DNA of 55,580 nucleotides, taken from the IMG/VR virus record IMGVR_UViG_3300036884_000126, positions 1-55,580 of that record; one strand, written 5' to 3'. How positions within the stretch are numbered: the first letter of the stretch is position 1; every line of letters starts with the position of its first letter. The notes beneath the pieces were generated by a model. The model was given only the letters and a program-made list of their open reading frames with translations. It had not been told where the DNA came from and did not search any database. Positions 19,616 to 21,023 of this stretch are shown here, in pieces. The DNA is from a virus. Its lineage: Duplodnaviria > Caudoviricetes. The position numbers were made by a program, and so were the translations under genes.

Positions 19616-21023
19616 ATGGACGGACGCGACGTGGAATCCGGTGACGGGCTGTACCAAGGTGAGCGCCGGGTGTAAGTTCTGCTATGCAGAGCGCGATTTC
19701 CACCGGCCATATCCTGAGAGGGACTTCTCGGATGTGCGCTGTCATCCCGACCGGCTCTCCTGGCCACTCCGATGGCGCGGCTCGAAACAGGCGAAAGCTG
19801 AAGGCCGGAGATCCCGCATCTTCGTCAACTCGATGAGCGACCTGTTCCATGAAAGCGTCCCATTTGAATTCATTGATAAAGTTTGCGGAATGACCCACGC
19901 CTGCGCTCAACACACGTTTCAGATACTCACCAAGCGCCCTATCAGGATGGTGGAATATGATTACTGGAGAGCCGCAAACAATCCACATGCCCCGGCGTGG
20001 CCGTCCAACGTCTGGCTTGGCGTCTCGGTCGAAGACCAGAAGACTGCCGATGAGCGGATACCGCTACTGATCCAGACGCCAGCGGCGGTGCGATTTGTGA
20101 GCTATGAACCCGCGCTGGGGCCGGTGGATTTCTCCCCGTATTTTAGATATGATCCAGTCCATGGAAACAAAACACAACGAAGAGTTTGTTTATCAGGCAG
20201 TGAAGTCGGGCGACCTCCAAATTATGGACGATGGGACAGTCTGGAGGATTCGGAAGCGCGGGTGGGATCGCTGGAAGAAATGCGTTGTGAGCCGATTATG
20301 CAAGCCGGTGAGAGCCGAACACGACTGCGGGGAATACCTTCAGGTCCGCGTGATGATCGACGGGAAGAGGGTTTATTGCTTGGCGGCACGGCTGATATGG
20401 CTTCATTTCAACGGAGCAATTCCCGGCATTCTCACTGTGAATCACAAGGACGGGAAAAAGAAAAGAAACCGCTTGAACAATCTGGAACTGGCGACCAACT
20501 CCGAGCAACAGAAACATGCCGTGAGAATCTTGAAGGTCGGACATGCCTGCGATCAGAACGGCCCCAAGAATTCAATGGCAAGATTGACCATCAAGCAAGT
20601 ACGCGAGATACGGAGTCGCCGAGAGCAAGGGGAGAAACTGGTGACGATAGCGCAGGATTACGGGATCAGATTTCAAGAGGTATCAAGAATAGCCCGTGGG
20701 GATCGGTGGGGCTCAATCTCATAATCGCCGGCGGAGAGTCCGGGCCGCACGCGAGGCCCGCACACCCCGATTGGTTTCGCGCTATTCGCGACCAGTGCCA
20801 GGCGGCGGGAGTGCCGTTTTTCTTCAAACAGTGGGGTGAGTGGCTTCCAGCCGATAAACACATGCAAGGGATGTGGCCGGAAAAAAAGAACGGCAGGCCA
20901 ATTACAAGAGAGTGGTGGCCGTCGGTCAACTGGGGTTCAGGATTGATTTCGTACCGAGTCAGTAAGCAGCGTGCGGGCCGACTGCTCGATGGCAGGGAGT
21001 GGAACGAGTTTCCGGAGGGGTGA
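19593..21023 (+). CDS. DUF5131 / phage Gp37-Gp68 family protein (radical-SAM-like) with a ~190-aa internal insertion
   Basis: [70 protein letters not shown] ...insert... [31 protein letters not shown]. Confidence 0.92.
   Translation: [476 protein letters not shown]
20161..20724 (+). CDS. HNH homing endonuclease overprinted in the +1 frame inside the DUF5131 gene
   Basis: YLQV...ARLIWLHFNGAIP..LTVNHKDG.K.RNRLNNLELATNSEQQKH; C-terminal G.KN.MARLT..QVREIR...HTH; frame open from 20104. Confidence 0.88.
   Translation: METKHNEEFVYQAVKSGDLQIMDDGTVWRIRKRGWDRWKKCVVSRLCKPVRAEHDCGEYLQVRVMIDGKRVYCLAARLIWLHFNGAIPGILTVNHKDGKKKRNRLNNLELATNSEQQKHAVRILKVGHACDQNGPKNSMARLTIKQVREIRSRREQGEKLVTIAQDYGIRFQEVSRIARGDRWGSIS

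Follow-up and report, generated by a model that had tools for sequence, protein, structure and literature searches.

The window analyzed in this work, a virus contig of 55,580 bp taken at its full length (IMG/VR record IMGVR_UViG_3300036884_000126), carries on its plus strand a gene of the DUF5131 family (19593..21023) that contains a second gene, coding for an HNH endonuclease of 187 residues (20161..20724), in its +1 frame. The host frame runs open through the nuclease gene as part of a single open reading frame (ORF) of 476 codons, and this stretch of DNA thus codes in two frames at once. We consider it likely, largely on comparative grounds, that the insert is a splicing-free homing element of the I-HmuI type, lodged in the DUF5131 gene and read through as a long loop of the host protein. 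The argument for this rests on a large set of related inserts, in which the host frame has been kept free of stops by selection, on the absence of intron and intein signals from Rfam and Pfam searches of the locus, and on a tract of exchanged sequence that surrounds the insert when the window is compared with an insert-free sister phage.

A nuclease gene overprinted on a DUF5131 gene

The host gene belongs to the Gp37/Gp68 family, which is radical-SAM-like. Its ORF is matched in two stretches by Pfam PF07505 (E 1.3e-87; 293.8 bits against a cut-off of 28.9), and its protein is also matched by phrog_2045 (E 6.8e-103). The N-terminal core (residues 1-179; 19593..20130, plus strand) closes with the motif EPALGPVDF, whereas the C-terminal core begins at GGESGP and takes up the remainder of the gene (20725..21023, plus strand); between EPALGPVDF, which ends at 20130, and LIIAGGESG, which starts at 20718, lie about 190 codons without Pfam match. 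A cysteine triad (C20, C27 and C30) and the GGESGP motif (G380-P385) are invariant in the aligned DUF5131 host proteins, and the best structural match to the core of an AlphaFold2 model of the host protein, built on a 52-sequence alignment, is the spore photoproduct lyase 4fhg (E 1.7e-3, probability 1.00). The modeled core resembles radical-SAM enzymes, which fits the invariant triad and agrees with the naming of DUF5131 in the RadicalSAM.org resource.

The insert region (20131..20711, plus strand; host-frame residues ~180-373) takes up about 570 nucleotides (nt) between the EPALGPVDF and (L/W)IIxGGESG motifs of the family. Read in the host frame it is hydrophilic and resembles no known family, and it is delimited by comparison with the sister phage (L090), by the confidence of the structural model and by the complete lack of host-frame stops. 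The pLDDT (predicted local distance difference test) score of the host model is mostly above 90 over residues 1-189 and 370-476 (around 90 in the C-terminal core) and below 50 over residues 190-369, with the insert placed between a strand at 166-171 and another at 376-380. The long host-protein loop postulated in the initial annotation, which had been made from the sequence alone, is therefore predicted as a disordered segment between two confidently folded halves. Alignment of DUF5131 homologues gives the same picture: insert-free relatives have a variable loop of ~20-45 residues at this position, and a search with the host protein returned long DUF5131 proteins (P0007, P0042, P0055, P0069 and P0103) that are 41-48% identical and carry, at this same position, an insert that can be aligned.

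The borders of the element can be placed rather closely. Its true 5' limit probably lies a few codons past 20131, since the residues that follow VDF (S-P-Y-F in the window, xx[YW][LFM] in relatives) are present also in insert-free proteins, and its 3' limit is probably immediately before CTC AAT CTC ATA ATC. The insert-bearing DNA is not an assembly artefact, because the 476-residue protein (P0001) is found in identical copy on 16 contigs and because contigs of a separate sequencing run (X15) span both junctions without difference. An insert-free protein of 271 residues (P0002) is present on 46 contigs. Some apparent joints were examined as insert-free alleles (e.g. 20123 to 20787, on one low-depth X14 contig) and rejected, for they stem from diverged DUF5131 genes of other organisms, with less than 95% likeness. 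DNA coverage of the query by DUF5131 genes in the 'phages' collection of cultured phages reaches 16% at most, and none of these genes has the insert.

The +1-frame ORF is identified as an HNH nuclease by HNH_3 (Pfam PF13392), which matches the ORF at 20104/20161-20724 (E 5.9e-11; 42.3 bits against a cut-off of 24.8), and by the phrog_59 family 'HNH endonuclease' (E 1.8e-28). The nuclease has 85 relatives, with identities of 43-74%. In an alignment (A2) of the window's own HNH and 33 of these relatives, 34 sequences in all, H95, N103 and N107 are invariant and H119 is conserved in 90% or more; the alignment places the start of the family at a Met three residues before K-NEEFVYQAV, that is, at ATG 20161 and not at ATG 20104, although the nuclease frame is open already from 20104, within the host YEP codons. 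EPALGPVDF, which ends at 20130, is followed by ATG 20161 after only 30 nt, and these are the only part of the insert outside the nuclease ORF. An AlphaFold2 model of the nuclease (pLDDT 86.9) finds its best match in the Protein Data Bank, over the full length, in I-HmuI (1u3e_M; E 8.1e-5, probability 1.00, identity 16%), with a TM-score of 0.39, a low value that is to be expected for an extended multi-domain protein. The C-terminal helix-turn-helix of the initial annotation reappears as three predicted helices (residues 144-179) in this model and in the full-length I-HmuI match, and not in Pfam; all other coordinates and sequence statements of that annotation agree with the sequence. HNH relatives in the 'phages' collection are mostly less than 40% identical and free-standing, as with gp68 of Gordonia phage Walrus.

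The open host frame across the insert is not due to chance. When synonymous HNH codons were permuted among positions of the same amino acid, preserving both the protein and its codon usage, 20,000 trials yielded a mean of 7.1 host-frame stops and a probability of 5e-5 for none, the number observed; whole-codon shuffling gave the same result. The earlier estimate of ~1e-4, obtained as (61/64)^188, was thus of the right order of magnitude. A host-frame stop requires an HNH codon ending in T followed by a codon starting with AA, AG or GA, and the avoidance of stops is therefore directly visible: 27 of the 188 codons end in T, yet T is the last letter of none of the 56 codons that come before a codon of this kind.

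Host-frame openness in related loci

A search with the host protein finds open ORFs only and is hence biased, and for this reason the survey of related loci was queried with the nuclease. The A2 alignment fetched DNA of 80 loci from viral contigs, 7 from genomes and 80 from metagenomes; it was needed because the single HNH protein, used as a query in viral contigs, gave no loci. The N-terminal host part, the C-terminal host part and the HNH were mapped on every locus, and loci were clustered at 95% DNA identity. An HNH match is present in 168 loci, window included (132 clusters), and falls within a DUF5131 gene in 100 of them (76 clusters). The nuclease is offset by +1 relative to the host in all 100 inserts, and for 80 of them the two host flanks can be seen and share a frame. 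Frequent host-frame stops in homologous inserts had been singled out in the initial annotation as evidence that would speak against it, and 99 of the 100 inserts have no such stop across the HNH. Summed over cluster representatives, synonymous permutation predicts ~435 host-frame stops and a single one is observed (in L185).

Natural controls are provided by the 68 loci in which the HNH is not inside DUF5131. The equivalent frame contains 659 stops in these loci, against ~711 expected; in a separate tally, 59 of 62 free-standing loci have stops. The closest control is L004, whose nuclease, 61% identical, stands free immediately upstream of a DUF5131 gene and shows 7 stops where 8.7 are expected.

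Comparison of the two frames over the same DNA indicates that the nuclease is the conserved protein and that openness is the main constraint on the host frame: in 105 pairs drawn from 15 non-redundant full-length inserts, pairwise identity averages 52% for the HNH frame and 29% for the host frame. HNH identity also exceeds that of the N-terminal host part in 83 of the 105 pairs. The host-frame product of the 15 inserts consists of 69-82% polar or disorder-prone residues (75% in the window, with 19% hydrophobic residues). Its hydrophobicity lies slightly below that of synonymous permutations in 13 of the 15 inserts (z -2.9 to +0.3), but this is true also of 4 of 8 free-standing controls. Loci with a broken HNH (L018) or a short one (L019, L087, L088 and L089) likewise retain an open host frame, and openness is therefore independent of an intact nuclease.

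The same rule holds at a second DUF5131 site, between host residues ~122 and 136, where inserts in L013, L027, L215 and L231 are again in +1 with the host frame open. Inserts in DUF5131 are also found in bacterial assemblies (L083, L084 and L086; Spongiactinospora, Spirillospora and Nonomuraea) and in metagenome-assembled genomes (L085, L087, L088 and L089; labelled Dechloromonas, Phenylobacterium, Bacillus and Binatia). Presumably, these bacterial inserts, from several phyla, sit in prophages.

Four loci with zero stops fall outside the class defined as inserted by the flank rule, and each represents another kind of embedding (L022, L198, L219 and L042). The HNH of L022 lies in a 293-residue ORF (2338-3219) with ~22 N-terminal and ~60 C-terminal DUF5131 residues and no stops against 4.0 expected, and the locus may represent a further, third site of insertion, or else a host gene that has lost a large internal part. 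In L198, the nuclease is embedded in an ORF with a DUF5131-like C-terminus. L042 has a 713-residue ORF (2095-4236, plus strand), which may be terminase-like, with an HNH relative of 32% identity at 2501-2974, out of frame within a Hint-like domain (Intein_splicing E 6.2e-6 and PT-HINT E 1.8e-4, both below Pfam cut-offs) and with no stops against 4.8 expected; it looks like an intein with an overprinted nuclease. The N-terminal host part is absent upstream of the HNH (1501-2040) in L191, L192 and L194, where a C-terminal DUF5131 remnant follows from 2062 in the frame of the HNH, and the former host frame contains 4-6 stops against 10-11 expected, as if the constraint had been lost recently.

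Candidate expression signals and mobility

The stop codon of the nuclease, TAA at 20722..20724 (plus strand), is built from the host codons ATA ATC (I-I) just before GGESG, and the overlap is shared by relatives. In 19 of 20 same-site loci, L088 being the exception, the HNH stop overlaps codons 2-3 ([IVL]-[IV]) of the W/L-[IVL]-[IV] triplet that precedes GGESG, written as TGG ATA ATx, TGG GTG ATC or TGG ATA GTx in relatives and as CTC ATA ATC in the window, and in two second-site loci it adjoins another conserved host motif. Since the stop falls within conserved host codons, the element can be said to borrow it from the host motif. A short subfamily of ~140 residues, without the C-terminal helices, is also found inside DUF5131 with the host frame open (L019, L032, L087, L088, L089, L245 and L249). 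Its members end in a conserved G-x-F-R/S-G followed by the stop in L032 and L088, and their stop overlaps the host triplet before a GGESG-type motif in L019, L087 and L089.

At the 5' end, 72 cluster representatives had enough upstream sequence for analysis, and two start contexts emerge. A GGAGG-like Shine-Dalgarno motif, often read in the host frame as Gly-Gly, is present in 32 of the 72 clusters, and a TATAAT-like hexamer lies exactly 7 nt before the ATG in 34, window included; under the strict form TAnnnT, the hexamer occurs in 25 clusters without a Shine-Dalgarno motif and in one with both. Within the hexamer class, the host codons for (V/I)-D-(L/F) read as TTGAC-like hexamers, at a best spacing of 17 nt in 30 of 34 clusters and with a mean match to the -35 element of 4.2/6 (13 clusters at 5 or more); the Shine-Dalgarno class scores 2.6/6 at the same distance, as a control not matched for position in the host. 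A -35 element, 17 nt, a -10 element, 7 nt and the ATG make up the typical layout of a sigma-70 promoter for a leaderless mRNA. The candidate elements of the window are a -10-like TATGAT (20148..20153, plus strand), 7 nt before ATG 20161, and a -35-like TGGATT with 3/6 matches (20125..20130, plus strand), 17 nt upstream of it and made of the host V-D-F codons. The arrangement TGGATT-17-TATGAT-7-ATG would thus be a promoter for a leaderless HNH mRNA. This idea had been advanced in the initial annotation from the hexamer alone, and it gains support from the recurrence of the hexamer at 7 nt where the Shine-Dalgarno motif is missing.

Evidence on mobility comes from L090, another viral contig and a sister phage with 91-98% DNA identity over the neighborhood, whose DUF5131 gene (P0002) has no insert. 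The flanks are 97.6% identical over 18189-20131 and 92.7% over 21022-21212, and the window has 595 bp at the insert where L090 has 82 bp. The 5' exon carries only 8 mismatches over 19593-20088 (98.4% identical) versus 13 over 20089-20131, while only 53 bp of the 3' exon, around GGESGP (20727-20779, 88.7%), can be aligned before homology resumes at 21022. Mismatch density and lost alignment thereby define an exchange tract (20089..21021, plus strand) that spans ~40 bp of the 5' exon, all of the insert and the complete 3' exon. This pattern of divergence indicates that the insert was brought in with ~40 bp of the upstream exon and an entire downstream exon of a different DUF5131 lineage, and such a tract is what homing with co-conversion, or recombination at the nuclease gene, would be expected to leave.

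Further downstream, DNA similarity between 21214-24575 of the window and 7002-10372 of L090 is reduced to scattered blocks of 73-83%, which places the invaded gene at the margin of a mosaic boundary. Another HNH-like ORF, unrelated to the first and 179 residues long (18146-18685, plus strand; phrog_5718, E 5e-5), lies 0.9 kb upstream of the DUF5131 gene and has no Pfam match at E <= 0.01. One block of homology with L090 ends at 17959 and the next starts at 18189, inside this ORF.

Probable read-through, its alternatives and its precedents

An element that is excised has no reason to keep the host frame open, and selection on that frame strongly implies that the insert would be read through unspliced. 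The notion of a splicing-free homing element tolerated as a long loop, proposed in the initial annotation, is supported by the comparative evidence as a whole, with 99 of 100 inserts open, controls with the expected stops, no intron model and a loop predicted to be disordered. The element would amount to hardly more than its own ORF, read at a +1 offset and located in a variable surface loop that two conserved motifs bound, with HNH codons chosen to keep the host frame free of stops. Ribosomes on the host gene would read ~190 extra codons as a hydrophilic, unstructured loop, around which the two halves of the enzyme would still fold together. The nuclease would be made separately from ATG 20161, most likely from a leaderless transcript of the internal promoter, as no Shine-Dalgarno sequence is present, and it would presumably cut insert-free DUF5131 alleles, with repair then copying the element and neighboring exon sequence. 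We infer, in line with this scheme, that the insert is translated, that the host protein is functional and that the nuclease is active on such a target.

It is improbable, in our judgment, that the invaded DUF5131 gene is dead and its frame open merely through recency or against premature termination, with its attendant polarity or toxic fragments. DUF5131 may be dispensable, elements spread with their flanks, so that conserved flanks could reflect recent transfer, and decaying examples do exist (L025, L219 and L191/L192/L194). Yet the six insert-bearing proteins, which are 41-48% identical overall, still have C20, C27, C30 and GGESGP invariant, 80 loci retain both flanks undamaged and in a common frame, and inserts with 44-70% HNH identity, all of them open, are too diverged for recency alone.

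A cryptic intron, self-splicing or otherwise removed by RNA processing, with a host frame open incidentally or for the sake of unspliced precursors, would be in keeping with the classical location of I-HmuI-type phage HNH genes in group I introns. An Rfam search of 19000-21800 at E <= 10 returned no intron family and only three chance-level matches (a microRNA, a small RNA and a SAM-SAH aptamer), although group I sequences vary greatly and a miss in Rfam is no proof of absence. As already pointed out in the initial annotation, there is no room for a ribozyme core, since the insert has only ~30 nt of non-ORF sequence upstream and none downstream, and the core would need to be overprinted on the ORF. 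An excised intron, moreover, needs no open frame, and the disappearance of ~435 expected stops makes an intron very unlikely.

We give just as little credence to removal of the host-frame peptide after translation, by unrecognized protein splicing or proteolysis of a novel intein-like element. The insert is in frame and adjoins conserved host motifs, as inteins do, and the out-of-frame HNH relative in the Hint-like domain of L042 makes an intein ancestry conceivable. Pfam, on the other hand, recognizes DUF5131 alone in the 476-residue product, with no Hint or intein domain, and the lack of intein termini reported earlier is borne out by junctions (F/S...G and L/W-I-I) that have no conserved Cys or Ser at the start of the insert and no C, S or T among the host residues after it, where the flank is W/L-I-I. 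Host-frame identity between inserts is a mere 29%, with pLDDT below 50 throughout. Recoding, by ribosomes that bypass the insert or by a +1 shift into a fusion of the N-terminal host part with the HNH, finds a parallel in the homing endonuclease cassette associated with the bypass of 50 nt in T4 gene 60 and in the opening of the HNH frame from 20104, but it is scarcely credible given that a bypassed gap needs no open frame, that 564 nt is more than 10 times the known bypass length, that HNH proteins all start at the same Met and that their genes carry their own Shine-Dalgarno or -10-like signal.

Several observations weigh against read-through of a self-expressed element as we present it. The 76 clusters are partly related by descent and do not amount to 76 independent events. 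One host-frame stop lies in the insert of L185, the DUF5131 gene of L219 is frameshifted just upstream of an insert whose HNH has zero stops, and L025 (1085-2884), with inserts at both sites, has one broken HNH copy and a stop in the N-terminal host part; these exceptions may be errors or decaying copies, and the rule is not absolute. A disordered loop is the default output of AlphaFold2 for a sequence without relatives and thus denotes absence of a predicted fold, not harmlessness. As for the promoter, the -35 hexamer of the window is weak, at 3/6, and a consensus promoter scan called no plus-strand promoter at the HNH start.

The splicing-free element favored here is not without precedent. 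The ShiLan domain is an out-of-frame HNH in mycobacteriophage DNA methylases, without host-frame stops or an intron or intein signature (Arsenault, Gosselin and Gogarten 2025, Genes 16:178, PMC11855218), and a second case described there is the insert of Pacc40 gp60, with relatives in which the HNH is free-standing upstream. The DUF5131 element shares with ShiLan its location in another frame of a phage gene, a stop-free host frame, the lack of an intron or intein signature, a stop at the very 3' end of the insert, a host-frame product predicted as a loop and a proposal of leaderless initiation; the free-standing upstream relatives Tiff81 and Sashimi of ShiLan/Pacc40 have their counterpart here in L004 (PMC11855218). 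The two differ in host gene (a radical-SAM-like DUF5131 versus a methylase), in nuclease (an HNH_3/I-HmuI architecture with a helical C-terminal part versus an HNH flanked by zinc fingers), in offset (+1 versus the 'third frame'), in start codon (ATG versus GTG) and in range (uncultured viruses and genomes of several phyla versus actinobacteriophages; PMC11855218). The main text of that paper makes no mention of gp37, gp68, DUF or 'selection'.

Other known systems share only part of the arrangement. Inteins with the homing endonuclease in a separate frame (Gosselin, Arsenault and Gogarten, bioRxiv 10.1101/2025.01.02.630785) also have a nuclease ORF overprinted on an open stretch, but there a Hint domain removes the insert, whereas no splicing domain is present here. 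Free-standing homing endonucleases nested in phage genes or splitting them, such as T4 mobE and the one in Aeh1 nrdA (PMC2790892, PMC3045599), are likewise phage HNH genes without intron or intein and show co-conversion of flanks; they lie between genes or split the host polypeptide, while the host ORF is here single and open. I-HmuI itself, from Bacillus phage SPO1 (PDB 1u3e), is the best structural match, but it is a nicking HNH enzyme encoded by a group I intron.

Our literature search found no report of an out-of-frame HNH element in DUF5131. Homing endonucleases inside genes were believed to depend on an intron or an intein if the host gene was to be spared. Read-through is a third solution, proposed in 2025 from a few mycobacteriophage methylases and now found in an unrelated host gene; the principle of an unspliced, out-of-frame HNH is therefore already published (PMC11855218), and the DUF5131 case adds a strong new example to it without being a principle of its own. 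The novelty lies in the test for selection with natural controls, the borrowed stop codon and the two exclusive start contexts, either a Shine-Dalgarno motif or TATAAT 7 nt before the ATG. The case also adds breadth, with another host gene, another type of nuclease and many phyla, as well as a testable model for expression of the nuclease.

Taking these elements together, it is possible, if rather doubtful, that the element builds its own expression switch from the host gene, with a promoter that is complete only once in the correct target and a stop that is borrowed, and that read-through is a third general lifestyle of homing endonuclease genes across bacterial phyla. If true, this would be a minimal parasite that takes half a promoter, a terminator codon and its 'splicing', of which there is none, from the gene it invades. 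More generally, the analysis provides quantitative evidence for the purging of host-frame stops by selection, with ~435 expected and one seen, and it reveals a nuclease that is missed by gene callers, which report one long 'DUF5131' protein. The probable tolerance of a 190-residue insert within a radical-SAM-like fold points to a permissive loop that may be of use in protein engineering, and the locus as a whole offers a compact natural instance of long dual coding, in which the constraints acting on each frame can be told apart.

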